From Candidatus Omnitrophota bacterium (lineage in GTDB: Bacteria; Omnitrophota; Gorgyraeia; B26-G9), in contig JBDRPX010000003.1 in NCBI GenBank assembly GCA_043826565.1, forward strand, positions 3,614-67,613: a stretch of 64,000 nt of DNA, given 5' to 3'. Each line of letters begins with the position of its first letter. Position 1 is the first letter of the stretch. The notes beneath the pieces are model-generated. The model did no database searches. It was not told the origin of the DNA and was given only the letters and a program-made list of their open reading frames with translations. This document shows positions 6,486-63,813 of the stretch, piece after piece. Position numbers and translations under genes: made by a program.

Positions 6486-6494
6486 TAATAAAGT

Positions 6495-6515: not shown

Positions 6516-6583
6516 CAAATACTCATTGGTAGTGCTGGGAAATTTTATGGCCGGTAAATAAATGAGTTTAAAAAGGATGTGTT

Positions 6584-6967
6584 ATGGCTGAAGAAAAACG
6601 CAAATTTATTCGTGTTAAGACCCGCAAGTCTGTAGCTAACTGCCGATTACTCGCAAATGAGAGATCCGGGGAAAGTAAATTCGCGGTTTGGCCGGTTAAA
6701 GATCTTGGAATCGGCGGAGCTGCAGTTTATTGCGAAGATGATATTCCTTTGGAAACCCTGGCCTATTTGAATATGGACCTTGATGTGATCAGAAGAACTA
6801 TTGGGGTTATTGCTAAAGTAATCTGGCGTCAGGCCAAGGATGCCGGATATGAATTAGGTTTGCGGTTTTGCTGGTGGCCGTTGACAGATGACCGGGATGT
6901 CATGGCTGATTATATTGAAAATAAAATAACTTATAACGATACTTCCGAGGAAGTATTACTAGGATAG
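6584..6967 (+). CDS. PilZ-domain protein (putative c-di-GMP receptor), 127 aa
   Basis: N-terminal RxxxR-type motif (KRKFIRVKTRK) and DxSxxG-type motif (DLGIGGAAV), as expected for PilZ. C-terminal FCWWPLTDDRD motif shared with the two other small PilZ proteins here. Confidence 0.7.
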   Translation: MAEEKRKFIRVKTRKSVANCRLLANERSGESKFAVWPVKDLGIGGAAVYCEDDIPLETLAYLNMDLDVIRRTIGVIAKVIWRQAKDAGYELGLRFCWWPLTDDRDVMADYIENKITYNDTSEEVLLG

Positions 6968-6978
6968 AGAACCATTCT

Positions 6979-6997
6979 CTCACCCCCGGGGTGAGGG
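6979..6997. repeat. GC-rich palindromic element CTCACCCC-C-GGGGTGAG(GG)
   Basis: Inverted repeat between the PilZ stop (6967) and the next gene. The same CACCCCCGGGGTGAGGG 17-mer recurs at 63982-63998. Confidence 0.6.
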
Positions 6998-7029
6998 AAT
7001 GGTTGGTAAATCAGGAGGAAATCAGGTTA

Positions 7030-28500: not shown

Positions 28501-31500
28501 GCTGAAGAAAGCCTTAATAATGCGCATACTTATATCAGCGGACAACAAGGAGAGGGTTTAGTTATCGCCAATACCTATGGCCGAAGCGCGCCGATTGTCC
28601 GCGAGCAAACAGGATCTTTAGATCAGCCGGCACAGCGTCAGCAGATATATGATTTCTTATCATCGAATATAAACGGCCAAAGCGGAACAATTGCCGAGCA
28701 GCATCGTTTTAGCGGTGATAAAGGATTTACTCAGGATGAAGGCCAGGGAACTTTATACGGCAATTCTTTAACCGGATTTGTCTTTGATCTGGTGGACGCA
28801 AGATTAGAACAGCAGGCAATTACGGATTATGTCGTGGATACTCCGAGCTTAATGGTCTATCGTCATGATCCGACTTCTAAGCAGAGAAGCAGAACGAGGT
28901 TGATCGGCATATCTGATTCTTTTGATACCGCTTCTTATACCGGCCGTCCGGAGGAATTGTACGCGACAACCGGTCCGCAGGCATATTATGGCAAGAGATT
29001 ACTCGCGGAATATCAGAGAACCGGAGATAAGAAATATTTAGACCAGGCTTTGGTGATTTACGGATTGCTTAGGGAACGCCAGGTTGCTAACGGCGGTTTT
29101 ATAAAGGCTCCGCAGCGCGGGGATCTCCGGGATAGAGAAGAGGATCAGGATAAGATCATCTCTGGTGAAGAAAATATTGCGGCGCTCAGCTTCTTAAGAG
29201 ATCTTGCGGAAATTATCAAAGGTGATAAACAGTACCGAAAAATTAATAAAGATCTGAGCACAAGATTACATAATGCGGTTAATTTTGTGTATTCATCATT
29301 ATATGACAAACAGACAAATACTTTTACCCGCGGGTTAAACTTTGAGGATAATCAATGGCGCAGGGACGGTGTTATGGCCATAGATGTGCTTAATTTATTG
29401 ATCTTAGAAGAGGGCGCGGATAATCTCGCGCAGCGCATCGGCGCGGATAATCTTATCGTGTTATGGGACCAGAAAGAACGTACAACGCTTGCTGCGGTAA
29501 CAACACAGCGTGCTGACGGAACCAGTGTTACGGTTACCGGTCATGACTGGACAGATAGTACCGGCCGGGGAGATCGTGCTGCCGCGGTGTTTGTCGAACA
29601 GACTTTTATTGATTCTTTAGCGCATTTGGAAATGGCGGCATTATTTAAAAACGCGGGTAATGCGGCTCGTGCGCAGCAGGAATTAAATACCTATAAAACT
29701 CATTTAAGTGAATGTGATAAACTGGCGGTTCATGTCGAAGGCAGAGGAGTTGTTTATCCGTATGCGTCTATGAGCGGGATTAAGCCGTTTAGCGATTCAA
29801 ATCGGATAATCCCGGAGCATTTTGGTAATACTTCCGCTACAGCCTGGGGATTCTTTGCTAAATCCCGGTATAATCTTTTTGGTAATAGAACCCTGGATGC
29901 GGATACTGTTATTGATCGAGTTACTCCGAGTTTTACGAATACTTTGGCCGGCCGGATCCGGGAAGAAGCCGCCAGGCAGATAGAATTATTACCGAATAGA
30001 ATGCAGAACGCGGTGAATGGTTCCTATGAGAAAAAATTAACTTCCGGCCGTCAGTCAATTGATCAGGCCGTAGAAAAATTAGAAGCTTTAATGCTCCGCG
30101 CGGCGGATGATATTACTCCGAGTGTTGATGAAGATTACTTGATCGCTTTTGATAATGAAGCAAGTATATATTGGTTCTGGAGCGCGGAACAGCAGAAAGT
30201 TGTGGAAGTGACCATGATTGCTGATAGCGAGAGTATTAAACGTGACCTGGCGAATCTGCAATTATCTTATGAATACGCCAAATTGCGGCAGTCCATGCGG
30301 CAGGACAATCTAAGTGGTTTGGAAATTACAAGTATTGACGGTGCTCCCATACGTTTACCCAGCGAATTGAACACGCAAACATTAGACGGCCAGCCGTTCC
30401 ATATTCCGGCAGGTTCCGCCGGTGTTGTCATCGGTCATGATCTGCTTTTAAGAAAACTCAATGAAATTGACGCATTGCCTTTAGCGCAGCAGCGTCAAAT
30501 CGAACGCCGCGGCTGGATGCTGGTCGATACTCTCGGCAATATCCTGGGTACGGATGATAAAACACCGGTTCGGGTTCGTTTATTATTCCCTTCAGGCAGT
30601 TGGCAGAGAACCAGAAATAATCCGGATACCGGAGTAGAGGAGACATTACATTTTAGAGGCGGATATGGTTTAGAAAAAGTGGTTACGGATAATTATACTT
30701 CTATAACAAGTTATAATGAGGTCGGCCTTGCAAACCGGGTAATTACTTTTAAACGAGATGCCGGAGAAGAACCAAAAGTAAGAGAGCTTACCGGAAATGC
30801 GCTTGATGAATTCATCATGACCGGTAACTTTAAAGAAATTGCCGGAGTAATTGAAATAAGAAATATTACCGCCCAGGATTTTAAAGGCAGTATTGTTTTA
30901 GCTGATTTAGAGCCGGTAGTCGAAGAGTTTGTCAGAACGCATAGACAATATCTAATTGCCAGAGGTACTCTAAAGCGTGATAGTACCGCGGAAGAAAGAA
31001 AAGCGCTGGTGAAGACAATGTCCGCGGATTTACAGCAGCAGCTTATAGCTAACGGTTATTTAAATGAAAACGGAGATATTTTAGATAAATTTAAAATATT
31101 GCCTGATTCTACCGCGCTTAATATTTCTGATGAATTTACCAGGATGCGGGAAGCTGTTTATAACCGCGTTCTTCGTGCTCTTGATTGGCACAGGATCGGA
31201 TATAGCGTGGATAACCCGGTATTAAACGCGCAGCAGTTGGAAGTATTTACTCCGGCTTCCCGCCAGGCGACCTGGACAATTACCGATACGAAAGTTAAAC
31301 TGGCTTTTCCCAATGAATTCGGACATGTTCAGAGAGCGGATATCTGGCATCAGGATGGAACGATGGATCAGCCGAAGCGCGGTATTTTAGGCTGGCAGGA
31401 AACAACCCTAAACCGGGATAAAACAAATCATGAATTGACAATCCACAGTATTAATCTGCTGAATGACCGGGAAAAAGATACGGTTTTTGATTTATCCTAT

Positions 31501-34500: not shown

Positions 34501-37500
34501 TGGTATAATTATAATCCGAATGTTATTACTTTTGAGGTTCCGGAAGAAGTTATTTACGGAGTGGAAAACGCGGTGGAAGTAAAAGCCGGCCGCAGTGATT
34601 CTCTGAACCGGATCTCTTCTAATTTCTTCAGCTGGGCGTATAATAAAGTCGCGCATGGCGATAATTCCTTTAGTGACAGTATTCGTGACGCGGTACAGCT
34701 GGCCGAAGAAATGGATAAATTATATTTATTAGCGGAATCTTTTGTCGATACTGACCTGCCGCTTCCTTCGGCAGCGGCTAAGCCGATCACAATTACTCCC
34801 AGTGATGTTTTGCGGGAAAAGATCACGCCTCATGAAAACGGTCTGATCCTGCACGGAGAAGGAAATCATTATGTAAATACAGGAAAAGAAGCGCAGATGA
34901 TCCTGGAGCTTTTACGTATCGGTTACGTCGGACAGGCAAAGAGCGCGCTGGATTTTTATTGGCTTCGTTTTTATGAGGGCGGTTTGGATATGGTTTCCGG
35001 AACTTATGATGTTGAGTCCGGGGAACCGATCGAGGATGATGTGCGTTTTATCAGAAAGCCGTTCGCGGAAATGACCAGTGATGACCAAATGGCGATTGCC
35101 CGGGCCGCGCTGGCTTATTATGAAAGAACCGGCGATCAGAAATATTACGATCTGGCCAGAGATATCACGATGAGTGTACTGCGTTTATTCTATGTCGGAA
35201 AGATCACTCCGGAAGAAGCCGGCCCATCGCAATTAACGGGATTTGGCGAAGGAGTAAAAGGCCTGGCGAATGCGTACTTTAATCTGGATGAATCAGAAAC
35301 CCCAAAATTTAGACAGACTGATGATCCGCTGGCTTATGGGATTACCAAATACAGATATCGTCCGGACACATCTTTTGTTGACGGTTTTGCGAAATGGGCC
35401 CGTCCGGAAAAATATGAGATAGGTACTCAGCGCACTGCGTATCAGCTGTTAAGACGTTTGAGTACTCATGAGCGGGGAACTGATTTTGGCCGGGAGATCG
35501 CTACTCACTTAGGAGAATTAGAATCCTGGTTTGAAGAGTTTAAAAAACGATATGCCCAAAACGGAGTTGTCCCTAAAGGGATAACGGAAATTATTGAAGT
35601 TAATACCAATACTTCGGCATTGTCCAAAGAGGTTTGGACATCTTCCGCCGACTGGCTGGCCTATATAGAGCAGATGTATGATATTTACACAAAGGATGGC
35701 ATTTTTACTGATGAGGAAAAAGAATATTTAAATACTTGTCTGGACAATTTAAGAAAAGCGCATGGTTTTGAGATTAACGGGTATTGGGGGCTGGATTTTG
35801 GTATACCTTTGAGCCGTTCGCCGGCAATATCACCGGCTTTAACCTACCGGTTTATGAAAATAGCCGAATCTGTGGGCCATGAAAATACTAAGGCAATGGC
35901 CGCGATGGCCTCGGATTCTTTATTCCGCATCAAGCGGGATCTTGGATTTATCCCGGAAGTTTATACTGCTTCCGGAGCCGAACATGTATTAACTTTCCAG
36001 AGAAAAGGAGAGGCTGTCCGCAGGATTAACGGAGAATACGCCGAAGACATATTAACCAGCCTGCGTTTTGTTATTCCGCTGGCTGAGCCGGAAATGCCGG
36101 AACCGGAAACTCTGGGAAGGCAAACTTTATGGACTGCTTTATGGCAGAGAAACGCGGATTTCTGGAAATCTTACGGTTATAAAACTCCGGATCAAATAAA
36201 AGTGAATACCTTAATTAGCGGCACTTTGGTATTTCTGATCATTTGGAGCATGATGTGGTGGACATATTGGAAGATAAAACACAGTAAAAAAACACTGGAT
36301 AAAAAATACGCGAAGTCTAAAGAAAAAGGCGCGTTGATCTATGAAAATCCGAGTATACTGGCAGAGCAGGCGAGAATTGACGCGATGTTCACTCCGGCCG
36401 CGCCGGCGGAAAGTATGTTTAACGGCAGGGTTAATACCGGAGAACTGATCGCGCCTTTTACCGGAGAAATAGAAGCGCGGATCAATGCGGATCATGCTTT
36501 GCTGGAGATCAGAAAGAAAGGGAAAATAGAGCAGGCAAAAAATACGCTATTAAATCTTTTAATTGCCGACCTTGTTTCCCGCGGTTATATTGTGGATTCC
36601 GGCGGAGTAACTAACGCGTTCCTGGCATTATCCGGGCCGGAAGATATGAACTTAAATGACGTATATATGGGGCAGAGGGCCGAGATCTATAAGCTCATCA
36701 AAGCGGCGGCAGATAAATACCGCGGGGATGCGAACCGGCAAAAATATTTAGATGAGTTGAAAGGCCGGGAAGAAGAGCTTAAAAGAGTATTTTTCAGTGA
36801 CGGCCCGGTAGAAGGCAACTTCCTGGCGAATTTAAAAGTATTGTATCAGTTTATCTGGGCCTGGAGAAAAGACGTGCTCCGCAGCAAACTTGCCGAAGAA
36901 GAGGGCCTTACGGATCTTAGCGAAGCAGAGCTTGAAGAACGTTTATATAGTTCTAATGACCAATGGCTCAACGGACTAGGCGAATATTCTCTGGTCATCT
37001 CACTTATATTAAGGAAGATAATTTTTGACCGGAATAAAGACAGTAAGTTAAGTGAAGACGGAAATAAATTTAAATCACGGCTTGACCGTTATCTTGGTGA
37101 ATACGCGTTTAATATTAGAAATCTTTTAGCGGATATGAAAGATGACCCGCAGGCGCTTAATGACCAGATGGAACTTGTGTTAAGGGATATGGGAATTGCT
37201 CCGCGGGAAGATAAAGTCGCCATGGTCAAAAATAATAAGTGGATAGATATTATTTTAAAAGCCGGCGATTGGCGGGGATGGAGCGCCTGGAAAAATTTAA
37301 ATATCCCTGAGGAAAATCCCGAGAAATTCTGGGATTCTTATCAGGCTTTTAAACAGCGAGAGGGAAGTGATATCCTGGCATTGCGTTCCTGGTTCTATGA
37401 CCTGATGTCCATTTTCCCGCATTTATTAGCTTTAGCGATCAGTATTATTGCCGCAAGCAGTGGACAGTTCGGTGCCGGCTCGATATTTACCTATATCAGC

Positions 37501-52484: not shown

Positions 52485-52487
52485 GGA

Positions 52488-52503
52488 CAGGGCATGCCCT
52501 GTT
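52488..52503. repeat. Perfect 16-bp palindrome ACAGGGCATGCCCTGT
   Basis: Self-complementary sequence 4 nt after the stop of paralog 1, with no U tract. It could be a weak terminator or a protein-binding site. Confidence 0.5.
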
Positions 52504-52567
52504 CGGTATAAAGGGTATATCCGCCAAAAAAACTTGGCGGATCATTTAAGAAAGGAGGAGAAAGGTT

Positions 52568-53218
52568 ATGAAAAAATTAATTTTGGTTGCAGCAATGGTA
52601 GTTTTGGGATTGTTTTTAGTTGTAAATGTCCAAGCGCAGGACATGACTGATGATTCTCAGGAAGAAGCTGCATTAGTCGGCAGGCCGGCTAATTTTGTCG
52701 ATGGTGTCTTCGGAGTTTATTATGATCGGGGTGATCGTAATAATCATTATATCCCCTCGGGATGGATGGGGGATTACGGGGATATCAAAATGAATGATAA
52801 TTATAAAGAAAACCCGCATAGTGGGAAAACCAGTATACAATTTAATTATTCGGCTAAAGGAAAACAGGGAGCCAACTGGTGCGGAGTAGCTTGGCAAAAC
52901 CCGGCAAATAACTGGGGAGAAAAAGACGGTGGGAAAGATTTACGCGGAGCAACAAAATTGACTTTCTGGGCCCGGGGAGAACTGGGGAATGAACGGATTT
53001 TGGAGGTTAAGTTTGGCGGTATCGGCGGAACTTACGCGGATTCTGATTCTGTAGGTATCGGGCCGGTTGATTTGACTGCGGAGTGGAAGCAATATACTAT
53101 CGACTTAGCGGATTGTGATTTATCTTATATAATCGGAGGGTTTTGCTGGTCGACAAGTGCTGATGCTAATCCGGAAGGATGTACATTTTATTTTGATGAT
53201 ATACAGTTTGAAAAATAA
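52568..53218 (+). CDS. Secreted CBM-like beta-sandwich protein, paralog 2
   Basis: AGGAGGAG RBS. Signal peptide. Collinear with paralog 3 (GWMGDYGD...NPHSGKT...GANWCGVAWQNPANNWGEK...KLTFWARGE...GFCWSTSADANPEGCTFYFDDIQFE). Confidence 0.7.
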   Translation: MKKLILVAAMVVLGLFLVVNVQAQDMTDDSQEEAALVGRPANFVDGVFGVYYDRGDRNNHYIPSGWMGDYGDIKMNDNYKENPHSGKTSIQFNYSAKGKQGANWCGVAWQNPANNWGEKDGGKDLRGATKLTFWARGELGNERILEVKFGGIGGTYADSDSVGIGPVDLTAEWKQYTIDLADCDLSYIIGGFCWSTSADANPEGCTFYFDDIQFEK

Positions 53219-53242
53219 TCATTTAGTTTGATTGATTTGTAA

Positions 53243-53282
53243 AAAGGGTAGGGGCAAAAATAATAGCTTCTACCCTTTTTTC
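53243..53282 (+). terminator. Rho-independent terminator
   Basis: AAAGGGTAG / CTACCCTTT 9-bp stem followed by TTTT. Confidence 0.6.
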
Positions 53283-53387
53283 GCCTGTTTTATTGCGGAA
53301 AATCTGGGTTGAATTTTTTAGCCGGATGATATAAAATATAAACAATAGCCGGATATACGGCAGCCATTAAAAAAGGGAGGATGGAAA

Positions 53388-54044
53388 ATGAAAAAAATAG
53401 GTTTACTGGTATTTGCGATTATCGCTATCTTAAATTTTTCCTTATTTGTTCATGCCCAGGAACAAGAGTCTGAAAGTGATGAGGCTGTGTATGAAGAATT
53501 AATGGGTATGCCGGGAAAATTCACAGATGGGGTATTTGGGGTCTATTATGACCGCGGCAACCGGAATAATCATTTTGTGCCTTCAGGATGGATGGGGGAT
53601 TTCGGCGATGTTCAGATGAATGAGCGCGCTGAAGAAAATCCGCATAGCGGTAAGACCTGTATCAAGTTTACTTATTCGGCCAAAGGAAAACAAGGAGCAA
53701 ATTGGTGCGGAGTTTTTTGGCAGAACCCGGCAAATAATTGGGGTGAGAAAAAAGGCGGGTTTGATCTGCGGGAAGCTACTAAGCTGACATTCTGGGCCCG
53801 GGGAGAAAAAGGCGACGAGCGTATCCAGGAGTTTAAATTCGGCGGTATCGGCGGAACTTACGCGGATTCTGATTCTATGGGTATTGGCCCTATTGATCTG
53901 ACTGCGGAGTGGAAACAATATACTATCGACTTAGCTGATGTGGATCTTTCCTATGTTAACGGTGGCTTCTGCTGGGCGACAAATGCGGATGCTAATCCGG
54001 AAGGAGCGGTATTTTACTTGGATGATATTCAGTACGAACTATAA
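53388..54044 (+). CDS. Secreted CBM-like beta-sandwich protein, paralog 3
   Basis: GGGAGGATGG RBS. Signal peptide. High identity to paralog 2. Confidence 0.7.
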   Translation: MKKIGLLVFAIIAILNFSLFVHAQEQESESDEAVYEELMGMPGKFTDGVFGVYYDRGNRNNHFVPSGWMGDFGDVQMNERAEENPHSGKTCIKFTYSAKGKQGANWCGVFWQNPANNWGEKKGGFDLREATKLTFWARGEKGDERIQEFKFGGIGGTYADSDSMGIGPIDLTAEWKQYTIDLADVDLSYVNGGFCWATNADANPEGAVFYLDDIQYEL

Positions 54045-54110: not shown

Positions 54111-54164
54111 AAAATAACTCAAAAGTATCAATTTTTGGAAAGGGGTTTAAAAAAGGATTTTATT

Positions 54165-55421
54165 ATGAAAAGACTGGGACTTGTTATATTTTTATGTTTC
54201 TTTGTAATGGCCGGCTGCGGGGACAAGGGCCCTAAAAAGGATAGGATAAGCATAGAGCAATTGCCTAATGGGCATTATCGTTTACTTCTTAATAAGGAAC
54301 TGTTTATTGTTAAGGGAGTTTGCTATGCTCCGGTTCCGATTGGAAAAAGCCATCTTTTCAATTTTACATGTGATCCTAACCGTCCCTGGATAGCTGACGG
54401 AAAGCTGATGCAAGACATGGGGGTAAATACTATTCGTCTATACCAGGCGGGTGACGAGTTGGGGACTTGTAAAGAGATGATCGAGGACCTATATAAGCTT
54501 TACGGGATAAGAACGATTATGGGCCATAGCCTGGGGTTTTGGGATTATCCGCCGCCAAATTATGGAGACCAGCAGTTTCTTGATGAAGTCACGGAAAGCG
54601 TAATAAGTATGGTTATGTATTTTAAAGATACTCCCGGCATCCTGATTTGGAACTTAGGGAATGAAAATAATTATAGTTTTGACGGCCGGATCAATCCCTG
54701 GACAACTCCGGAAATAGATGCTATGGAAAGTTATCGGGACCAGACTGATGAAAGAGCCAGGCTGTATTATAGTTTTGTAAATCAGCTTGCCGGGAAAATA
54801 AAGCAAATCGATAAATATCACCCGGTATCTTTGGGGAACGGGGAAACTGTGGGGTTAAAGATTGCCGCGCAGAATTGTCCGGAGGTGGATCTTTTAGGCT
54901 GCATTGTCTACCGGGGCAAAGTATTCGGTACATTTTTTAAAGAAGTAAAACGTAAGTTTGATAAGCCGGTAGTTTTAACGGAATTCGGCTGTGATGCTTT
55001 TAATGCGGAAAAACAAAAAGAAGATCAGAAAAATCAGGCAAAATTTTTAAAAAGCCAGTGGCTGGATATAGAAAAAAATCTCGCCGGCAATGAAGGTATC
55101 GGTAATTGTATCGGCGGAGCAGTATTTGAATGGACTGATGAATGGTGGAAGACTTCCGAAAGCGACCGGGACAGCTGGCTGGTGCATGATACCAGTGCCG
55201 GATGGGGCATGGGAGCGTATGATTTTGACGCCCGGGCCGGGAAGAATATGAATGAAGAATGGTTTGGAATTGTCGCCTTGTCTGAAGAATTAGAAGATGG
55301 TATCAATAAAAGAATTCCGCGTAAAGCGTATTTTGAATTAAGAGAGTTATGGAAGGAACCAGAGACTAGTTACAAGTCTCAAGCCGCAAGTCACAAGTTG
55401 AAGAAAAAAGATAAAAAATAA
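54165..55421 (+). CDS. Lipoprotein clan GH-A glycosidase, paralog of 49927-51822
   Basis: The ORF track begins at TTG 54135. ATG 54165 has an AAAGGA RBS and yields the lipobox MKRLGLVIFLCFFVMAGCG. WNLGNENNYSF and VLTEFGCDAF catalytic motifs. C-terminal SYKSQAASHK tail. Confidence 0.7.
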   Translation: MKRLGLVIFLCFFVMAGCGDKGPKKDRISIEQLPNGHYRLLLNKELFIVKGVCYAPVPIGKSHLFNFTCDPNRPWIADGKLMQDMGVNTIRLYQAGDELGTCKEMIEDLYKLYGIRTIMGHSLGFWDYPPPNYGDQQFLDEVTESVISMVMYFKDTPGILIWNLGNENNYSFDGRINPWTTPEIDAMESYRDQTDERARLYYSFVNQLAGKIKQIDKYHPVSLGNGETVGLKIAAQNCPEVDLLGCIVYRGKVFGTFFKEVKRKFDKPVVLTEFGCDAFNAEKQKEDQKNQAKFLKSQWLDIEKNLAGNEGIGNCIGGAVFEWTDEWWKTSESDRDSWLVHDTSAGWGMGAYDFDARAGKNMNEEWFGIVALSEELEDGINKRIPRKAYFELRELWKEPETSYKSQAASHKLKKKDKK

Positions 55422-55525: not shown

Positions 55526-57355
55526 ATGAAGAGAGTTAATATTGTTTTGCTTGTACTTGGGGGAATGCTGCTTTTATGCGCAGCAGAAGTTAGAGCTGCG
55601 GATAACCCGTCTGCTGATGAAGCATTCCTTAAAAGACTTACCGAAACAGTATCAAATTTTTTGAAAGACGAACAATTTCTGGAGGCAGTAGAGTATTTGG
55701 ATAAGATGCATCAGCAAAAGGATGCCGGAGAGGTCAATGATCTTTTCTACATAGAATATTATATACTGCTGACAAAATCCCAATACCTTGATTATTTGGC
55801 GATCAAGGAAGATTGGCAGGATTACTATAATTCCTATCATGATTTAGATACGCAAATAATCAATAAAGCTAAACAGCTTGTGGATAAATATCCTTTAGCG
55901 ATGACATCGATAGATATTCAGTACTTAGCCTGGAAAGCATATGTGCGGGAAGAGGATGAAGCGGAAAGTTCTGTTTTTGATAAACTGGTGAGCATGGTTA
56001 TTTCTTATACCGCAAAAAAAGGGGATATTGTTAAATTTAAAGAAGTTGCGGATCTGGTGGGCCATGAGTCAGGCGGTGCTTATTTAGAAAAATTGTTTAA
56101 GGGATATCAGGATTATCTTATTAGTAAAAAAGCCGATATCCCCGGTATTGAAAGTTTAGCGGAAATTGCGCAACGCTATATGGAAGAAGGCCGCAATGAT
56201 ATGTCCCGGGTTGTCTATGAACGGTATATGAGCCTTATTCGAGGGCGTTATCCCCGGGAACAGGGGATTGCCAAGCTTTCCTTGGTTGCGGATAAGTTTC
56301 GGGCGGATGGCTTTTCTCAAGCTAAAGATGCCGAGTTCGCGGAAATTGTCTACTCTTATATAGAGGAGCATTTCGGTAGTGATGCTTTAGCAGAAAAAGA
56401 AGTTTTTTCCCGGGCCTATAATTTAGAACTTAGCGGTAATTATGAAAGAGCTGTTGAAGAGTATAAAAAGTTTGTTAAAACATATAAAGAAAGTGATTTT
56501 TTAGCCGAAGCCTATTCTCGCTTAGGTATAATTAATTTCTATGTTTTGGCTGCGCCGGAACAGGCAATTGCTTTTTTCCAGAAAGCTATGGATATATCTC
56601 CGGAATCACCGTTAGTATTGTTATGTATTTATGAAACAGCATTGTATTTTCAGTGGAAAGAAGAAAATGAGAAGGCCAGGGAGCTTTATACCCGTTTAGT
56701 AGAAAGCAATGATAACTTAGCTGCTTTGGCAAAACAGCGTTTAGAAGAAATCGATTCCGGGGCCGGGATGCCGGAGAATCTTAAAAATTTATTTAATATT
56801 ATATTTACGCCGGTTCAAGAGTCTACAGTAGTCTTGACTTTAACCGCAGAGCCGGAGAAGAGTTTTGTAAATCAGCCGGTTAAAATTATTGCCACGGCAC
56901 AGGATTTTGCGGCCGGAACAGTTCAGCCTTTATTTGTCTATGATTGGTTAAGAGATACCGGTAAAACAATTAATCCCGGGAATGTAACGGAATTCACTAC
57001 GGAATATGAATCTGCCGGGCCGAAAGTTGTTTGTTTTATCGCCACTTTAGGGGATTCTAAGTCGGCGATATGCCGGGCTCCGGTTGTTTATGATGTTAAA
57101 ATCTCTTCTCCCCTAAAAGGAGCGGTTTTAAAAATAGGAGAGCAAATTGATTTTAAAGCGGAATTTTTCCCCTTCACTTACGAAGATGAAAAAGTTACCT
57201 GGCAGTGGAATATCAGCGGCCCGGAAACAATTTCCGGAGCGGGTAAGGTTTTTTCGGGTGTTTTAAATACCCTGGGTACATATACCGGAGAATTAAAGGG
57301 TTCTCTGGGTGCGGCGCATCAGATAAAGAAATTTGATTTCAAAATCGGGGAATAA
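55526..57355 (+). CDS. Hypothetical secreted protein (609 aa)
   Basis: Signal peptide MKRVNIVLLVLGGMLLLCAAEVRA. Helical repeat-rich N-terminal half and a beta-rich C-terminal region. No family recognised. Confidence 0.6.
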   Translation: MKRVNIVLLVLGGMLLLCAAEVRAADNPSADEAFLKRLTETVSNFLKDEQFLEAVEYLDKMHQQKDAGEVNDLFYIEYYILLTKSQYLDYLAIKEDWQDYYNSYHDLDTQIINKAKQLVDKYPLAMTSIDIQYLAWKAYVREEDEAESSVFDKLVSMVISYTAKKGDIVKFKEVADLVGHESGGAYLEKLFKGYQDYLISKKADIPGIESLAEIAQRYMEEGRNDMSRVVYERYMSLIRGRYPREQGIAKLSLVADKFRADGFSQAKDAEFAEIVYSYIEEHFGSDALAEKEVFSRAYNLELSGNYERAVEEYKKFVKTYKESDFLAEAYSRLGIINFYVLAAPEQAIAFFQKAMDISPESPLVLLCIYETALYFQWKEENEKARELYTRLVESNDNLAALAKQRLEEIDSGAGMPENLKNLFNIIFTPVQESTVVLTLTAEPEKSFVNQPVKIIATAQDFAAGTVQPLFVYDWLRDTGKTINPGNVTEFTTEYESAGPKVVCFIATLGDSKSAICRAPVVYDVKISSPLKGAVLKIGEQIDFKAEFFPFTYEDEKVTWQWNISGPETISGAGKVFSGVLNTLGTYTGELKGSLGAAHQIKKFDFKIGE

Positions 57356-57373
57356 TCGCGGGATCATATTATA

Positions 57374-59344
57374 ATGAAGAATACAGATAGAAGAAAATAC
57401 ATCCGCTTAAACAAGATTTTTCCTGTTGAAATTCAGGTCATTGACCTTCAAAACAAACCGATAAGTGATCTTTTGCAGGGATTTACCAGAGATGTCGGGT
57501 TTGAAGGTGTCTGTGTGGAAATTAATAATTTAAAAGAATCCTATCGGGAAGTGCTTAGCAATAAACAAGCAAAGCTTCTGCTTTTTATTAATATCCCTTT
57601 TAAACATAAGCCGGTAAAAGCAATAGCCCAGTTAACGTGGATGCAAAGAGCGGCTAAACCTTACGCGGATAGTTATCGTTTAGGCCTTAGCTATGAATTT
57701 ATAAGTATCCCGGAACAAAAACATATAATGCGGCATGCCCGGTTTACAAAATATTTTCCGCGTTTTTTAGCGGTATGTTTTCTGTTTTGTTTTATGTTTG
57801 CCGGGTATTTACTGTTTGAAAATATAAAACTTACCCAGGATAATAAGGCCCTGGTGCTGAAACTTACGGCTCTTTCTGAAAAACAGGCTCAGATAAATAC
57901 ATCTTTGGATAAGATCCAGGCAGAAAAAGTTGTGGTTGCCGGGTTATTAAAGAATATCGCTCTCAGCAGGAGGCAATTGGAAGCTCAGATCACTTCTTTA
58001 GAACAAAAACAAAGAGAGAAGGAAATACAGGCCATAGAGGTATATGACCGTCAGACCATAGATTTACTTATCAGTCAGCGTAAAGGAGCGGAACATAAAC
58101 TATCGCTGGTTATGAAAGAAAAGCTTCAGTTAGAAGAGAAATTAAATGATTATAATGAAAGTGAGAGGGGATTAAAAATGGAACTGGCCGCGCTTCAAGG
58201 AAAAAAGAAGGTTTTGGCAAACCGAAGCTTAGAATTAATGTATCAGTGGATTGTCTCGTCTCAGAGCAGTAAGACCGGGCTGGTGGGCAGTTATGATAAT
58301 GATATTAAGTTTATGGATGTGGGCTTTACTTATGATCAGGCTTTAAGCGCGTTTACATTTATTAATTATGAAGAATATAAAAAAGCAAAAGATATATTTA
58401 ATTTTTTTAAAGACACAGCGCAAAGATTTGACGGCGGATTTGCCAATGCCTATGATATTATTACCGGGAAAGTATCCGAGTATATTGTGCATACCGGCCC
58501 CTCTATTTATCTGGGGCTGGCGATGATGCATTATCAGGATAATACCAGTAAAGATACTTATCTGGAATTGACCCGGGAAATCGGAGACTGGCTGTTAATT
58601 CTGCAGAAGGAAGAGTTCAAAGGGGCTTTGCCCGGAGGCCCGGAGTTAACCTGGACCAGTACTGAGCAGAATATTGCCGGATATGTGTTTTTAAATAAAT
58701 TATTTAAAATTACCAGAGAGAAAAAATATAAAATAGCCGCGGATAAGATATTTTACTGGATAAAAAATACCGCTTATAACAGTAAGCTGAAAAGATTTAA
58801 CCGGGGAGAAGGTGACCGGATGATCGCGACGGATACCGTGGCTTTGAGCATTCTGGCGTTTGGCCCGGAGCGTTTGAAAAATATGGGAGTTTCCGTGGAT
58901 GATCTTTTAAATTGTGTTGAAGAGAATTGCCGGGCCAGAGTTAATTATGTGAATATGTTCGGTAAAAATGTAAGTGTTACCGGTTATGATTTTTGCAGTC
59001 CGTCCAGTATCAGCAGATCCGGGGTGATCTGTGTGGAGTGGACAGCGCAGATGGTTGTGGCGTTTAAGGAATTAAGTAATTATTACTTAAGACATGATGA
59101 TGCGGCCAAAGCTAAGGAGTTTATGCGTCAGGCTGAGTATTATATCGGAGAACTGGACAAACTTTTACTGATACGTTCAACCGGATTCGGCGCGAGAAAA
59201 GGCATGGCGGGTTTGCCGTACGCGACGCACAGCGGAGTGGATACCGGCCATGGGTGGGTTACTCCGGATAATATTTCGATTTCCGCGGCCGGGACAAATT
59301 TTGCAATTCTCGCTAAAGAAGAGTATAATATTTTTAGACAGTAA
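57374..59344 (+). CDS. PilZ domain fused to a TM helix, a coiled coil and a six-hairpin glycosidase/epimerase-like domain
   Basis: N-terminal DRRKYIRL and TRDVGFEGV PilZ motifs. TM helix FLAVCFLFCFMFAGYLLF. A coiled coil follows, then FDGGF...ITREKKYKIAADKIFYWI motifs shared with the giant protein. Confidence 0.6.
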   Translation: MKNTDRRKYIRLNKIFPVEIQVIDLQNKPISDLLQGFTRDVGFEGVCVEINNLKESYREVLSNKQAKLLLFINIPFKHKPVKAIAQLTWMQRAAKPYADSYRLGLSYEFISIPEQKHIMRHARFTKYFPRFLAVCFLFCFMFAGYLLFENIKLTQDNKALVLKLTALSEKQAQINTSLDKIQAEKVVVAGLLKNIALSRRQLEAQITSLEQKQREKEIQAIEVYDRQTIDLLISQRKGAEHKLSLVMKEKLQLEEKLNDYNESERGLKMELAALQGKKKVLANRSLELMYQWIVSSQSSKTGLVGSYDNDIKFMDVGFTYDQALSAFTFINYEEYKKAKDIFNFFKDTAQRFDGGFANAYDIITGKVSEYIVHTGPSIYLGLAMMHYQDNTSKDTYLELTREIGDWLLILQKEEFKGALPGGPELTWTSTEQNIAGYVFLNKLFKITREKKYKIAADKIFYWIKNTAYNSKLKRFNRGEGDRMIATDTVALSILAFGPERLKNMGVSVDDLLNCVEENCRARVNYVNMFGKNVSVTGYDFCSPSSISRSGVICVEWTAQMVVAFKELSNYYLRHDDAAKAKEFMRQAEYYIGELDKLLLIRSTGFGARKGMAGLPYATHSGVDTGHGWVTPDNISISAAGTNFAILAKEEYNIFRQ

Positions 59345-59355: not shown

Positions 59356-61542
59356 GTGTTAAAATTGAAAAAAGTTATTTTTCTCTGTATCTGTGTATTA
59401 TTATTAAGGGGAATTTGTCTGGGGCAGGATTTATCTGAGACAGAAACACTGGATGAAGAAGAGTATAATCCTCTAAATGAATATGATGACCTGCTGCTTG
59501 AACCGGTAGTGCAGGGAAGCTTTCGTTTCAATTTTGGGTTTGAAGATAGTGAAGGTATCGTTAAGAAAGCTAATTATTCACAGCAGGAAGAGACCTGGCG
59601 GTATCTATTCGGGGAAGATAAATACAATACCTATGACCCGGCGATTTTTAATCAGTTTAAATTAAGTATTCTTAGCCCGATCGATGAAAGATTATCGGTT
59701 TATACAAAGATAGTTATTGATCCGTGGGCTTTTGTCGGCACTTCCCAAACCATAACTCTTCCTACCTGGTATGGAGCCGGTGATGCGAATGACCCGGTGG
59801 AACTTCAGCTTAAATACTTCTCCAGTAATACCCGCACATACGCGCAAACCGTGCGTTCAGCATCCGGGGATTCTTTTGATCTGCCGGAATCAAAAGTCGT
59901 TAAAGGAAACTCCCGTCCGGGGAGTGACCTGGGATCTTTCGGTTTTGGAACACATCGTTTGGATATCCCGGAGTTGGATATTGACATGGAATTTAAACCT
60001 ATAAGATCTTTCTGGCTTGATTTCCGGGAAGATGAATACCGGGTAAGATTTTTTCTTTACGCGGAAGATTCTATGGGATTGTATTTTGATGATCCGTTAC
60101 GTTTGTGCGGTAATCACATAAACTGGGAACCAAGTCCCTGGTTTGATAAATGGCAGCCGGGAAGACTTTATACGGCCACCGGATGGGCCAGGGGAGAATG
60201 GATCAGAGATTATTTATTGAGAAACAGCCAGGAGGAATTTCTTAATCTATTGCGGGGAATCCGGCTGGATATAAATGGGATCGAGTATGACGGAAGTTTT
60301 ATGATCGCCGCTCCGGTTGACCCCTGGGAAGATTATGATGATATTAATAATGTGCCGGTGGCATTAAGGTTAAAAAAGCATATTAGTGATGAGCTTACTC
60401 TCGGTACACTTTATACAGCCCGGACCGGATATAATAAAGATAGTTTAGATGCTTTTGACCAGGTTTTAGGTATTGATTCTAAATTAAAATTTTTAGATGA
60501 ATATTCACTGGCTTTAGAAACTGCGGTTTCTAAAAACGGCCGGCATCTTAATGATGAAGATTTTAAGACCTATGAAGATGATTTTGCGTATGCGGCGATT
60601 TTCGGGGCGAATATTCAGCCGTTTGAACTTAATCTGGCTTCCAAGCTTTCCTATGTGTATATGGGCCGGGAATTTGACCCGCCCTTGTCAAATTATGATC
60701 AAACCCGTAATGATCAGTCCTGGGGAGAGCATATCTGGTTTTCTAACCGAAGCCGTGCCGAAGAAACCTACCGGATCGGAAATAGTATTGACCAGGACCG
60801 GAAAGTAGCGGCTTTAGCCATGAATCTGGGGCCTATGGAAGGATTTAATTACTTTTTTGATCTGCGTAATGTCCGTACAGCTTGTGATGATGCGTTTGTG
60901 GAAAATGTATTCCGGAATGAGATGTCTTATAAAGCGGATAAGAATTTATTATACAAATTTTTATATATTTTTAATAAACGTCCGAAAACAACTGAGGGAA
61001 AGCAGCAGGATACAAATACTGTTTCCGGCGGCGTTAAATATGATTTCCTCGAAGATTTTAGTATTGAGGAAATTTTAGAGCGGACCAATAAGTATCCGGC
61101 TTATCCGGGTGAACTTTATGACTGGCTGACGATTAATCCGATAGCGCCGTATCCGTATTACTCTATGTCTAAAACAAGGTTGATCTATAACCCTTATCAT
61201 TGGGTAGAGGTGGCTTTTGAACATACTTATAATGAGTTTGATCACGCGACAACCCTGGATGACTTTATGAACTATTCCGGAATAGACGCGTTTTTCCGGC
61301 CGTTTGATGATTTGACGGCCCGGTTTGTGTACCGGTACAGCCGGGTGGCGGATTACTCAGATAACAATAATGTCAAAGGCCATCATAATTTTTATGTTGA
61401 CCTTATGTATGATCTGGATGAAGATGCTCAGATCGGGATCAGATTTAGTGAAATTGTCAGTGACTTTTACGGTTTAGGATGGGAATCCACGGTTTTAGAT
61501 ACTCAGAAGATTATCCGCGTAGTTTACCAGGGAAAATTCTAA
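59356..61542 (+). CDS. Probable outer-membrane beta-barrel protein (728 aa)
   Basis: GTG start (TTG 59365 is an alternative). Signal peptide. Alternating-hydrophobicity Y/F-rich strands. C-terminal ...VVYQGKF ends in Phe, the classic OMP C-terminal signature. Confidence 0.5.
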   Translation: MLKLKKVIFLCICVLLLRGICLGQDLSETETLDEEEYNPLNEYDDLLLEPVVQGSFRFNFGFEDSEGIVKKANYSQQEETWRYLFGEDKYNTYDPAIFNQFKLSILSPIDERLSVYTKIVIDPWAFVGTSQTITLPTWYGAGDANDPVELQLKYFSSNTRTYAQTVRSASGDSFDLPESKVVKGNSRPGSDLGSFGFGTHRLDIPELDIDMEFKPIRSFWLDFREDEYRVRFFLYAEDSMGLYFDDPLRLCGNHINWEPSPWFDKWQPGRLYTATGWARGEWIRDYLLRNSQEEFLNLLRGIRLDINGIEYDGSFMIAAPVDPWEDYDDINNVPVALRLKKHISDELTLGTLYTARTGYNKDSLDAFDQVLGIDSKLKFLDEYSLALETAVSKNGRHLNDEDFKTYEDDFAYAAIFGANIQPFELNLASKLSYVYMGREFDPPLSNYDQTRNDQSWGEHIWFSNRSRAEETYRIGNSIDQDRKVAALAMNLGPMEGFNYFFDLRNVRTACDDAFVENVFRNEMSYKADKNLLYKFLYIFNKRPKTTEGKQQDTNTVSGGVKYDFLEDFSIEEILERTNKYPAYPGELYDWLTINPIAPYPYYSMSKTRLIYNPYHWVEVAFEHTYNEFDHATTLDDFMNYSGIDAFFRPFDDLTARFVYRYSRVADYSDNNNVKGHHNFYVDLMYDLDEDAQIGIRFSEIVSDFYGLGWESTVLDTQKIIRVVYQGKF

Positions 61543-62189
61543 TGAACAAAAAAGGTCTTACTCTTATTGAAATCCTTGTTTCCATGGGGATTTTAGTTAT
61601 GCTGGTAGCGATTTTATATTCTGTGTTTAGTCTGGCTTTACGCGGCTGGAAAAAATCCGATAATATGCTGGAAAACTCAGCCCAAGCCCGCACCATCTTA
61701 GAACGTATGTCCCGGGAAATATCTTCGGCTGTAGTTAAGCCTTCTGCGGGAATTCAATGCCGGGGATATAATACCGGAAGCGGCATAAAATCTAATAGTA
61801 TTGCGGATGAGTTTTTCTTTATTGCACCGCTTAAGCAGGATAATAAAGATGGTTCGGATCTGTGTGAAGTTGGTTATTGGCTGGATAATACTAATGCTTT
61901 ACGACGACATTATAAAATTGATGAAAGAGGAGCCGGAAGTTCCGAACTGGATTTTAATTTTTCCACGGGAACGAGCAATACTTTTGCCGAAGAAATTACG
62001 GATCTGCAGTTTGAATACTACTCGGGGAGTGACCTGGTAAATCCGGTTATGGCCTGGGATTCACAGACAGACGGCGTTCCGGCAAAGATCAAGATAACGA
62101 TTACAGTGGAAACCGGAAAAGGCTCAGCAGTGACAAATCCCGATTTTTTATCCCGCAGTTATAGTGTTATTGTATCACTTCCTCAATAA
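61542..62189 (+). CDS. Prepilin-type N-terminal cleavage/methylation domain protein (T2SS pseudopilin or T4P minor pilin-like)
   Basis: ATG 61542 overlaps the upstream TAA (TAATG). MNKKGLTLIEILVSMGILVMLVAIL has the G|(L/F)TLIE prepilin motif with a Glu at position +5. Confidence 0.7.
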   Translation: MNKKGLTLIEILVSMGILVMLVAILYSVFSLALRGWKKSDNMLENSAQARTILERMSREISSAVVKPSAGIQCRGYNTGSGIKSNSIADEFFFIAPLKQDNKDGSDLCEVGYWLDNTNALRRHYKIDERGAGSSELDFNFSTGTSNTFAEEITDLQFEYYSGSDLVNPVMAWDSQTDGVPAKIKITITVETGKGSAVTNPDFLSRSYSVIVSLPQ

Positions 62190-62334: not shown

Positions 62335-63813
62335 ATGATAATGATTTCTAGTATTACCAAGAAAAAATGGTTTAAAACTATATCTTTTTTGCTGATCCAT
62401 GCTTTTTTACTTCTGGATATTGCCTGGGCCGGGGGAACAGAGATATTGTCTAGTAAAAATAATGATTGTTTGTCTCCGATGGTACAGATCGGCAATGATT
62501 CTTTGCAGGTTTATTTTAATTCTGCTTATGACGTTCCATCGTCCGCGCGTACTGCCCGGATGCCTGGGCATTATAAATATAAAAACTCTATATTAAAAAA
62601 ACTAATTGTATTTAATCAGGCAAAAATTGCCAGTATTGGGGATTCAACGAAGCGATATGTAAATAGAATTAAATATCTGGTCCCGGTTCTTTTACTGCTT
62701 TGCGCGCTGGTCTATGGTTTTTTCCATTGGGACAAGTTATCTCCGTTCGGTAAAAAAGCGTTATCTTTTTTTCCGGTGATCATCGGGATAATTCCCGTGG
62801 TGTTTTTGATCATAGCGGAATTTGTTCTAGAGGCTGGTTTCTATATACGTGATTATTTTAAAGACTTAATTGATTTATTTAAATATTCACAGGAAGACTA
62901 TTTTAAAAGCAGAGCAAAGCTTATAACAGACTTTCCGGATCCTTATCATCGGTCACCGTTCTTCTCGGTTACCGATGATAGTACTACTTCCCGTTGCCTG
63001 CGTTTGAAGGCGATCCATAACCGGCAGAAAAAAATAGAGGCTATAAAAATAATTGAAAAATTAGAGCCGGAGAATGCCGTAAGGCTGTTTCTTCATGGGA
63101 TAATCCGAGATCGAGAAAACGAGGTTGTTGAACAAGTAATAATTTCATTAAATAAATTAGGTTTGGATACGGAATTAGTTGTGCTGGCATGTTTAGCTAA
63201 TTATAGACGCGAGGCCATGGTTAAAATCCTACATAAACGTGACCAGGTGAGATTTGATGAATTAATGAAAAAATTTAAAACCTCAAAAGCCGAAAAAAGC
63301 GAACAAGCTAAAGAAAAATTCAAACAACATGCCCAAGATCAAAAGCTGGAAATTTTTTGCCGGGAAATTATTCCGGTTATGAATAATCTGGATTTTTCCA
63401 CAATCGAAAAATTGAGAATTATTTTCACCTTCAGCTCGAGTTATGCAGAGATTTTGCGGATATTAACAGGCTGGATGAAAAAATCCTTACAGGATGGATT
63501 TGAGTTTGACACCGCATCACTGGCCCGATTATTATCCGGCGCGGAAACAAGAGTAGATCTCGTGAGAATTTTACAATATGAAGAACAGCGTTTTGGGAAC
63601 AATACAAAGTATGTTCTTGACCGTTCCGGCCGGCATCTGGTTAGCCGCGTTTATTTTTCCGATCCGGATATAGTGACCGCTCAGGTAATTGATAAAACTC
63701 TTACTGATAGTAAGAAAGAAAGACAGGATCTGGATTTCTCATATACGCTACCGCAGCCTTGGTTAAATAAAATTACTTTTACCCAGGAATTGGCTGTTTT
63801 ACACTCAATTTAA
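62335..63813 (+). CDS. Leader-family membrane protein (492 aa)
   Basis: AAAGGAG RBS. Leader KKKWFKTISFLLIHAFLLLDIAWAGG followed by DCLSPMVQI. Internal TM helices. Confidence 0.7.
   Translation: MIMISSITKKKWFKTISFLLIHAFLLLDIAWAGGTEILSSKNNDCLSPMVQIGNDSLQVYFNSAYDVPSSARTARMPGHYKYKNSILKKLIVFNQAKIASIGDSTKRYVNRIKYLVPVLLLLCALVYGFFHWDKLSPFGKKALSFFPVIIGIIPVVFLIIAEFVLEAGFYIRDYFKDLIDLFKYSQEDYFKSRAKLITDFPDPYHRSPFFSVTDDSTTSRCLRLKAIHNRQKKIEAIKIIEKLEPENAVRLFLHGIIRDRENEVVEQVIISLNKLGLDTELVVLACLANYRREAMVKILHKRDQVRFDELMKKFKTSKAEKSEQAKEKFKQHAQDQKLEIFCREIIPVMNNLDFSTIEKLRIIFTFSSSYAEILRILTGWMKKSLQDGFEFDTASLARLLSGAETRVDLVRILQYEEQRFGNNTKYVLDRSGRHLVSRVYFSDPDIVTAQVIDKTLTDSKKERQDLDFSYTLPQPWLNKITFTQELAVLHSI

Follow-up and report, generated by a model that had tools for sequence, protein, structure and literature searches.

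Alg44, the alginate co-polymerase of Pseudomonas aeruginosa, has a single transmembrane (TM) helix and a periplasmic helical hairpin, and through it cyclic di-GMP (c-di-GMP) controls a polysaccharide step in the envelope; AlgK, a TPR protein, and AlgE, in the outer membrane, are partners in the same alginate system. In BcsA, where c-di-GMP gates cellulose synthase, the PilZ domain is C-terminal and shares the cytoplasm with the GT2 domain on which it packs. LapD, which combines degenerate GGDEF-EAL domains and a HAMP domain with a periplasmic LapG-binding domain, passes the c-di-GMP signal across TM helices. To our knowledge, the outputs of PilZ domains are either cytoplasmic partners (BcsA, YcgR, MapZ) or a polymerase complex (Alg44). 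In this study, we analysed a 64-kb stretch (64,000 nucleotides [nt], hereafter the window) of contig JBDRPX010000003.1 of a Candidatus Omnitrophota bacterium, a phylum whose giant proteins are thought to mediate predation, and in it a gene for a protein of 656 amino acids (aa) that carries a PilZ domain at its N-terminus and an (α/α)6 six-hairpin domain at its C-terminus.

PilZ-effector fusions that control a polysaccharide step are already known as a kind; what is new in the 656-aa protein is an (α/α)6 output domain across the membrane. The initial annotation of the gene had proposed the order PilZ domain, TM helix, stalk and extracytoplasmic six-hairpin domain, and this order was borne out by Pfam and profile searches, hydropathy, AlphaFold2 (AF2) modelling and Foldseek.

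Architecture of the PilZ fusion protein

The 656-aa protein is 100% identical to the NCBI entry 'hypothetical protein ABII88_00265 [Candidatus Omnitrophota bacterium]', and 46 more homologues were found, nearly all of 640–690 aa and collinear from end to end. Scanning one genome per GTDB species revealed 442 encoded relatives of the fusion, the best 80 of which are full-length and labelled Omnitrophota almost without exception. Because it has 442 relatives among the species representatives, the open reading frame (ORF) is no chance ORF but a genuine gene with phylum-wide conservation. Throughout, counts of motifs, PilZ matches and stalk lengths refer to 42 aligned full-length family members, conservation of barrel residues to 223 domain sequences, and counts of loci to 78 family loci that were compared. 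The AF2 model of the full-length protein had a predicted local distance difference test score (pLDDT) of 89.4 and a predicted template modelling score (pTM) of 0.79.

The N-terminal domain is of the canonical PilZ type, weak in the window copy and solid at the level of the family. Against the Pfam PilZ model (PF07238), the window copy scored 15.1 bits (E 0.03; gathering cut-off 22.5 bits) over profile positions 1–99 of 102, and it is the sole member of the 42 without a match at E ≤ 0.01, the other 41 matching at that level with a best E of 7e-10. A profile of the N-terminal 125 aa matched the solved c-di-GMP receptor YpfA/MotI (PDB 5vx6) at E 5.5e-5. In this alignment the RxxxR motif, whose R7 and R11 are each present in 42/42 members, lies on RRQYVR of 5vx6, and D40-V-G-F-E-G45 lies on NISAGG. 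Position 40 of the second motif is Asp in 38 members and Asn in four, and G45 is invariant (42/42); position 42 is Ser in 30 members and Gly in 12, the window copy among them. Since Gly at the Ser position is seen in 12 of the 42 and across a whole clade, it is probably tolerated. The motifs, which the initial annotation had allowed might prove degenerate on alignment, are conserved except for this one Ser-to-Gly change in the window copy. The AF2 model has strands at aa 10–23, 34–41, 45–51, 67–72, 81–92 and 100–109, followed by a helix from aa 112, with a pLDDT of about 85–92 over most of the region and lower values at aa 1–10 (61) and aa 91–100 (71). According to Galperin and Chou, fusion to other domains leaves the c-di-GMP binding of PilZ domains in place, and interactions are made through the PilZ C-terminal helix, which mediates the dimerisation of Alg44, a PilZ-HlyD fusion (10.1101/814665). 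The motifs of the 656-aa protein suggest that its PilZ domain would also bind c-di-GMP.

A 19-residue window with a Kyte-Doolittle mean above 1.6 was found only at aa 128–151, which form the single predicted TM helix. Basic residues (RHARFTKYFPR) lie on its N-terminal side, and stand-alone homologues of the barrel begin with a signal peptide or lipobox; because of these two features, the PilZ domain is predicted to be cytoplasmic and the remainder of the protein, hairpin and barrel, periplasmic.

The AF2 model connects the domains by one unbroken helix (aa 112–219) comprising the PilZ C-terminal helix, the TM helix and the first arm of the stalk, followed by a turn at aa 220–224 and a return helix at aa 225–295, with a hairpin length of about 100 Å per arm. 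In 42/42 homologues the arms are constant in length, at 54 residues for aa 152–205 and 55 residues for aa 241–295, and all stalk insertions and deletions fall in the tip segment (aa 206–240), which ranges from 12 to 58 residues. That length varies only at the predicted tip supports the model, in which the stalk is an antiparallel hairpin and not an extended coiled coil. The helical stalk that had been annotated as a coiled coil is thus real, whereas its form in the AF2 model is a different one. As the stalk is modelled as a hairpin, the barrel would adjoin the inner membrane and the tip would point to the outer membrane, an arrangement reminiscent of membrane-fusion proteins and of Alg44.

The AF2 model of aa 283–656, made from a 30-sequence alignment, reached a pLDDT of 92.8 and a pTM of 0.93 and contains 12 helices. 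A Foldseek search of the PDB gave 300 matches at E ≤ 0.001, and the 50 that were listed are six-hairpin carbohydrate enzymes without exception. The matches to the relatives named below have a probability of 1.0, E values of 1e-8 to 2e-9 and template modelling scores of 0.60–0.70; for the six-hairpin enzymes taken together, the scores are 0.55–0.70 and the sequence identities 8–13%, or about 10–13% for the nearest folds. The listed relatives include MmpH, cellobiose, glucose and GlcNAc 2-epimerases, CPF_2247 of glycoside hydrolase (GH) family GH126, and members of GH76, GH88/105 and GH100; the top matches among those listed were 7qsj (MmpH), 4z4l, 8h1l, 3ren and chains of GH76/88/105, and MmpH was also the best match of the full-length model (E 2.4e-9, template modelling score 0.70). 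We are confident that aa 296–656 form, as modelled, an (α/α)6 barrel of twelve helices that belongs by fold to the six-hairpin superfamily. The GH76/GH88/AGE-like fold guessed in the initial annotation was therefore right at the superfamily level, and the motifs quoted there in its favour, FDGGF and TREKKYKIAADKIFYWI, are present in the 656-aa sequence. The barrel was assigned to no non-catalytic repeat family.

Placement in a named family failed. Searches of Pfam, NCBIfam and the PDB (phmmer) with the single 656-aa sequence left the C-terminal domain unmatched; matches to SMC and HAUS2 in single-sequence searches were rejected as coiled-coil noise, and an Intimin_C match in Pfam (E 0.088) was treated as chance. 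The family profile reached GH76-type chains in the PDB weakly (4mu9, E 8e-4; 6u4z, E 0.004), and the similarity to GH76 at the profile level spans barrel helices 4–7. Five of the 42 relatives gave sub-threshold matches to the GH76 Pfam model (PF03663; best E 1.1e-4), and the 656-aa protein itself gave none. In a weak alignment (E 0.04–0.06), the catalytic Asp pair of GH76 (136/137 of 6shm/6y8f) falls on the invariant G375-P376, and GH76 membership was rejected on the ground of this replacement of the Asp-Asp dyad. AGE epimerases (the PF07221 family, which has a catalytic His pair on inner helices) are among the top Foldseek matches, and Pfam gave no PF07221 match for the 656-aa protein. Because the barrel belongs to no characterised family and has Gly375-Pro376 in place of the GH76 Asp-Asp, it is at most a putative enzyme.

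The barrel has a conserved polar set consisting of Y320, D321, E369, H373, E431, N433, R477, D481, D487, D539, R548, E555, Y616 and T624-GHGW628. Conserved Asp, Glu, His, Asn and Thr residues stand at the N-termini of helices 2, 4, 6, 8, 10 and 12, the position of the funnel site in the (α/α)6 fold. E431 and E555 are 98% conserved, D487 96%, D321 95%, D481 92% and D539 89%, and R477, R548, Y320, Y616 and W628 are likewise conserved. H373 and H626 are invariant in the PilZ-fused family and not conserved in the wider domain family or in the copy found in a giant protein of the same window.

When 1.84 billion cluster representatives were searched with a profile, 1884 proved to contain the barrel domain, 248 of them at E ≤ 1e-30. 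The domain occurs in PilZ fusions, in secreted proteins of 370–450 aa and inside proteins of 2,000–7,900 aa; the members with names are called 'hypothetical' and are mostly from Omnitrophota, and Pfam holds no model for the family. A second kind of fusion is seen in P0097 (871 aa, encoded outside the window), in which the barrel (aa 508–869) is preceded by a long region whose matches, MgtE_N/FliG-like, are weak. P0097 lacks an obvious signal peptide, which may contradict a strictly extracytoplasmic barrel.

Genomic context and the giant protein

The features of the protein and its locus are collected in the table below.

Features of the PilZ fusion gene and of its locus. Positions are those of the window; aa numbers are those of the encoded protein.
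Feature	Position	Strand	Evidence
Entire fusion gene (PilZ, TM helix, hairpin, (α/α)6 domain)	57374..59344	+	ATG start, 656 aa
PilZ domain (predicted cytoplasmic), aa 5-121	57386..57736	+	Pfam PF07238, N-terminal profile to 5vx6, AF2 secondary structure
RxxxR motif, R7-K-Y-I-R11	57392..57406	+	Alignment with 5vx6, 42/42 conservation
(D/N)x(S/G)xxG motif, D40-V-G-F-E-G45	57491..57508	+	Alignment with 5vx6, motif census
Single TM helix, aa 128-151	57755..57826	+	Hydropathy, AF2; continuous with PilZ C-terminal helix
Antiparallel helical hairpin (predicted periplasmic), aa 152-219, turn 220-224, aa 225-295	57827..58258	+	AF2, length variation
(α/α)6 six-hairpin domain (predicted periplasmic), aa 296-656, unnamed family	58259..59341	+	AF2, Foldseek, profile vs PDB, conservation
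Secreted TPR protein, 609 aa, upstream partner	55526..57355	+	Pfam TPR matches
728-aa secreted protein, downstream partner, putative outer-membrane protein	59356..61542	+	Signal peptide, C-terminus ...VVYQGKF
GspJ-like pseudopilin	61542..62189	+	Pfam N_methyl and T2SSJ, NCBIfam pilin models; conserved in close clade
MFS_2 sugar symporter	48431-49918	+	Pfam
GH158-like TIM-barrel GH, 631 aa	49927-51822	+	Pfam GH2_C/GH72-like only; PDB phmmer GH158 9oro, 6pal
GH158-like lipoprotein, signal ..VMAGC	54135-55421	+	Pfam GH2_C/GH72-like only; PDB phmmer GH158 9oro
Three tandem secreted paralogues, 216-225 aa	51807-52484, 52568-53218, 53388-54044	+	Signal peptides, C-termini like carbohydrate-binding modules (FYxDDIxxE)
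Giant ORF, 11,888 aa	10552..46218	+	TTG start; SecA_PP_bind aa 422-521, Helicase_C aa 723-778, SLT aa 2440-2533
Full (α/α)6 copy in giant ORF, aa 6029-6443	28636..29880	+	223-sequence profile
Partial or divergent (α/α)6 copy in giant ORF, aa 8103-8212	34858..35187	+	Broad profile

The fusion gene lies in a tight cluster. The gene for the secreted TPR protein ends 18 nt before its start and is kept directly upstream in 14 loci (homologues of this protein also give PKD-like matches), and the gene for the 728-aa protein begins 11 nt after its stop and is kept directly downstream in 16 loci. The 728-aa protein has an orthologue of 67% identity in one other locus, L001, and no match in Pfam, NCBIfam or the PDB; its C-terminus resembles the β-signal of outer-membrane proteins, and we take it as a putative outer-membrane protein. 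It shows no similarity to the Omp85 proteins encoded downstream in distant clades, and a relationship to them was rejected. The pseudopilin probably starts at 61542 and not at the listed 61479, judging by the prepilin motif MNKKG|LTLIE and a stop/start overlap, TAATG, at 61540–61544. The 18-nt and 11-nt spacings and this overlap indicate co-transcription of the fusion with the cluster.

For the two TIM-barrel GHs upstream, the closest solved relative is GH158 9oro, at E 1.6e-12 for the 631-aa enzyme, which alone also matched 6pal, and at E 4.9e-7 for the lipoprotein, which suggests β-1,3-glucan-type substrates. The three tandem paralogues, whose C-termini resemble carbohydrate-binding modules (CBMs), gave no Pfam or PDB match; genes of their family lie near the PilZ fusion in 20 of the 78 loci, often in two or three copies. 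The ORFs of 51807–54044 were also considered as candidates for the small pilZ homologues described near other giant genes (see below) and rejected, being negative with the PilZ family hidden Markov model and with Pfam at E ≤ 1; the fusion is the only PilZ gene in the window. The gene order of the cluster is the same in L001, L005 and L006, whose fusions are 47–57% identical to the window protein, and in these three loci the cluster is followed by a GT4-family transferase and an ABC2-type transporter. Among all loci, GH and CBM-like genes adjoin the fusion in about 20 of 78, including members of 34–37% identity. In other clades the fusion stands beside pseudopilins and an SNase-like gene, or it follows a small TPR protein together with a transglutaminase-like lipoprotein and precedes an Omp85 protein or Era, or its surroundings are plainly housekeeping. 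Its association with the giant gene and with the breakdown and uptake of glycans is hence real in the lineage of the window and not family-wide.

Unbiased clustering of neighbours over the 78 loci found no family-wide partner. Three of the largest neighbour clusters were rejected as artefacts, being antisense shadow ORFs inside the fusion gene, and many others were housekeeping synteny. Scans of the window for promoters and terminators gave counts at the level of shuffled sequence (50 vs 49.8 and 19 vs 17.3, respectively) and were uninformative, and no glycosyltransferase was found among the window ORFs. Of the ORFs with 150 aa or more, 18 in all, only that at 38676–39176 is not on the + strand; it falls within the giant gene and is probably spurious. 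Every 2-kb bin of the window shows a positive GC skew (0.05 to 0.30).

The giant ORF ends 11 kb upstream of the PilZ fusion and has SecA-like domains at its N-terminus and a lytic transglycosylase (SLT) domain. Its residues 5001–10000 gave no Pfam match, yet they hold both copies of the (α/α)6 domain. The full copy scored 124.8 bits (E 4e-39, model positions 4–370) with the 223-sequence profile and 59.4 bits with the narrower family profile; it keeps the equivalents of E369, E431, N433, R477, D481, D487, D539, R548, E555 and Y616 and lacks D321 and the TGHGW loop. The partial copy spans only model positions 26–128, the first third of the model; its scores were 27.8 bits (E 1.2e-9) and 6.3 bits (E 0.004) with the broad and the narrow profile, respectively. 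The motif family had been annotated as occurring twice in the giant protein and as linking the two proteins functionally. The domain is indeed there, in one full copy, whereas the second copy is only partial; likewise, the link has in its favour the shared domain family, at about 25% identity, and the proximity of the two genes in one clade, and against it that most clades are not near such a locus.

Around giant genes of Omnitrophota, small pilZ homologues immediately downstream and nearby transporters, glycosyl hydrolases and genes like those of type II secretion systems have been described (West-Roberts et al., 2023, 10.1101/2023.11.21.568195), and a second preprint reports PilZ genes, transporters and GH2-type hydrolases around them (10.64898/2026.06.07.730766); neither describes the PilZ/(α/α)6 fusion, and the (α/α)6 domain common to fusion and giant protein is likewise absent from the first. 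The window fits this published type of locus, with a SecA-like/SLT giant ORF followed by a major facilitator superfamily (MFS) symporter, GHs, the PilZ fusion and a pseudopilin. A transporter, GHs and a pilin-like gene downstream of the giant gene are common to both; the published pilZ genes are small and immediately follow the giant gene, whereas the 656-aa fusion is encoded 11 kb downstream.

Five proteins of the locus, the giant protein included, share an N-terminal leader (10552–10760, 46820–46990, 62335–62520, 6991–7200 and 3486–3650) that consists of a hydrophobic helix, (W)A(A)GG, 10–25 residues and xL(A/S)Pxxx(L/I/M). Examples are 'IIQAFLVTDIVWAAGG...YLAPTANI' in the giant protein, 'LIQAFLMLDFCWAGG...HLAPALQL' in ORF 46820 and 'LIHAFLLLDIAWAGG...CLSPMVQI' in ORF 62335. 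The latter two ORFs, which bracket the GH/PilZ cluster, are alike only in their first 55 or so aa (43% identity, E 2e-9). Such a leader may serve as a dedicated sorting signal. Four large ORFs (539, 584, 999 and 892 aa; 15–9669) precede the giant gene and have no Pfam family at E ≤ 0.01, and two of them bear the leader; the 584-aa ORF has a sub-threshold DUF1722 match (17.7 bits against a cut-off of 22.5).

Proposed mechanism and alternatives

We give an even chance to the reading that the 656-aa protein is a bitopic inner-membrane c-di-GMP receptor with a periplasmic barrel of carbohydrate-active type, acting as an inside-out switch on periplasmic glycan processing in the manner of Alg44 or LapD. 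In such a mechanism, c-di-GMP would bind the PilZ domain, probably in a dimer formed through the C-terminal helix as in Alg44, and the bound domain would move the continuous rod of C-terminal helix, TM helix and hairpin. The effect of this movement would be to alter either how active or accessible the barrel is, or how it docks to the TPR and putative outer-membrane partners. The barrel would most likely bind a glycan in its central funnel and cleave or otherwise convert it, using E431, D487 and E555 together with D321, D481 and D539, which stand where alternate helices begin; among the candidate activities, that of a hydrolase is favoured over those of an epimerase or lyase. In the lineage of the window, the substrate would probably be a glycan shared with the GH158-like (β-1,3-glucanase-like) enzymes, the CBM-like proteins and the MFS symporter of the operon, and the giant protein's own copy of the barrel may act on the same substrate. 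A stronger form of this proposal, which we put forward tentatively and hold to be somewhat unlikely, is that the (α/α)6 domain is catalytic, represents a new CAZy-type family and is gated by c-di-GMP across the membrane, the protein being the founding case of such a switch; Omnitrophota would employ the family both as a regulated inner-membrane enzyme and as a module of giant predation-associated proteins. Such a switch would tie the state of the second messenger directly to the processing of prey or envelope glycans.

Several observations weigh against the proposed switch. The PilZ domain of the window copy scores under the Pfam threshold (15.1 vs 22.5 bits) and has Gly where the motif has Ser (DVGFEG), and no GGDEF, EAL or HD-GYP domain was found within the 64-kb window. 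The hairpin and the domain arrangement rest on a monomer AF2 model. In most clades the neighbours of the fusion are housekeeping rather than GH genes, and its association with the giant gene and the GH158-like cluster may be lineage-specific.

The last point is also where an alternative for the substrate begins, one that can coexist with the switch mechanism. The protein could be a housekeeping envelope enzyme acting in all Omnitrophota on a polymer of the cell itself, such as a peptidoglycan-associated glycan, capsule or exopolysaccharide, its place in the cluster being incidental synteny without a role in the use of prey or external glycans. About 58 of the 78 loci have unrelated housekeeping neighbours (EndoIII-like, SNase-like, M20 peptidase, HypD/HypF, Era and an Omp85 protein), and conservation is phylum-wide, as seen in the 442 relatives among species representatives and the full length of the best 80. 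In addition, c-di-GMP classically controls self-made exopolysaccharides, and a six-hairpin protein is encoded within a c-di-GMP operon of Listeria (PMC4125290). However, GH158-like and CBM-like genes recur beside the fusion in several divergent clades (34–57% identity), the short spacings and the TAATG overlap point to co-transcription with the cluster, and the barrel domain is also embedded in giant proteins. We regard a substrate of the cell's own making as possible but doubtful.

Another explanation dispenses with catalysis. The protein could be an adaptor of the envelope, a scaffold like Alg44 or the membrane-fusion proteins whose tip docks to the downstream outer-membrane protein and whose barrel only binds a glycan or a partner; c-di-GMP would then switch, instead of an enzyme activity, the building of a conduit across the envelope that exports polysaccharide or takes up oligosaccharides. 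We consider this explanation unlikely. The layout of N-terminal PilZ domain, single TM helix and periplasmic α-hairpin is that of Alg44, the restriction of length variation to the tip is expected of a docking hairpin, and the TPR gene directly upstream and the putative outer-membrane protein gene directly downstream recall AlgK and AlgE of the alginate system. The absence of the GH76 catalytic dyad and the GT4-family transferase and ABC2-type transporter of L001, L005 and L006 point the same way. Yet Pfam gave no HlyD/membrane-fusion-protein match, no synthase-type glycosyltransferase is adjacent in the window, and the TPR and outer-membrane neighbours are missing in most clades. Furthermore, the importer-type MFS_2 protein, the GHs and the CBM-like proteins point to breakdown and uptake, and five to six near-universal carboxylates at helix N-termini are commoner in an active site than in a scaffold.

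It is quite improbable that the PilZ domain of the window copy is degenerate and serves, like non-binding PilZ proteins, as a cytoplasmic protein-interaction or dimerisation module: the low score, its standing as the lone non-match of the 42, the Ser-to-Gly change and the lack of a detected c-di-GMP turnover domain in the window would fit this, but R7, R11, D40 and G45 are all in place, Gly recurs naturally at the position of the motif Ser, the family profile aligns with 5vx6 motif for motif, and PilZ fusion proteins are reported to keep binding (10.1101/814665).

The proposed c-di-GMP-controlled switch on a periplasmic barrel is the reading that we carry into the comparison below. As to the initial annotation, its observation is confirmed and its interpretation, a direct output from c-di-GMP to a polysaccharide enzyme, is partly supported, because barrel catalysis and c-di-GMP binding are both inferred.

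Comparison with known systems

Alg44 is the closest known system in layout and LapD the closest in signalling logic. With Alg44 the fusion shares an N-terminal cytoplasmic PilZ domain, a single TM helix and a periplasmic hairpin, and each has genes for a TPR and an outer-membrane partner, the latter putative in the window, in its vicinity. However, the periplasmic part of Alg44 is HlyD/membrane-fusion-protein-like, whereas the hairpin of the 656-aa protein carries an (α/α)6 barrel, and no HlyD-family match was found for it in Pfam at E ≤ 1. In addition, no Alg8-type/GT2 synthase adjoins the fusion, whose neighbours (GH158-like, CBM-like and MFS importer) look catabolic. Membership among the Alg44-type co-polymerases was rejected, both the HlyD domains and the adjacent synthase being absent.

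The parallel to BcsA drawn in the initial annotation is inexact. Both proteins have a PilZ domain fused in cis to a domain that acts, or in the 656-aa protein may act, on polysaccharides, an arrangement suited to direct allosteric control by c-di-GMP; in the 656-aa protein, however, the PilZ domain is N-terminal, the membrane lies between PilZ and output, and the output is six-hairpin and not GT-A. Since the membrane separates PilZ from barrel, Alg44 or LapD is the nearer match in logic. LapD offers a mechanistic precedent for the path from a cytoplasmic c-di-GMP receptor through TM helices to a periplasmic output, although it has no domain in common with the 656-aa protein and the analogy is a functional one only.

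With MmpH (7qsj), the AGE 2-epimerases (4z4l, 8h1l, 3vw5), the GH76 α-1,6-mannanases, GH88/105 and GH126 (3ren), the fusion has in common a 12-helix barrel with short β-hairpins. The central cavity of MmpH is deep, acidic and conserved (PMC9883506), and the conserved carboxylates of the fusion's barrel may form a similar one. Differences from these six-hairpin enzymes are the low identity (8–13%), the missing Pfam assignment and Gly375-Pro376 in place of the GH76 Asp-Asp.

Our literature search found no PilZ/six-hairpin fusion and only one case in trans, Lmo1913 of Listeria, a protein of the six-hairpin glycosidase superfamily encoded in a c-di-GMP operon (PMC4125290); it likewise found nothing on c-di-GMP in V. 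archaeovorus. Lmo1913 and the BcsZ-type GH8 enzymes, six-hairpin glycosidases from exopolysaccharide loci under c-di-GMP control, are products of separate genes, hydrolases without a c-di-GMP-binding domain, whereas the fusion is one polypeptide. The barrel family itself is large (1884 cluster representatives) and unnamed, with no characterised member and no Pfam model. Small, partly soluble and conserved throughout the phylum, the fusion offers a tractable route to the target glycan of the giant proteins and to a possible control of its processing by c-di-GMP. Set beside the cytoplasmic partners and the polymerase complex that PilZ domains are known to serve, a PilZ domain wired through the membrane to a barrel of the sugar-enzyme type would represent a new class of c-di-GMP output and a compact, one-protein model of inside-out signalling.

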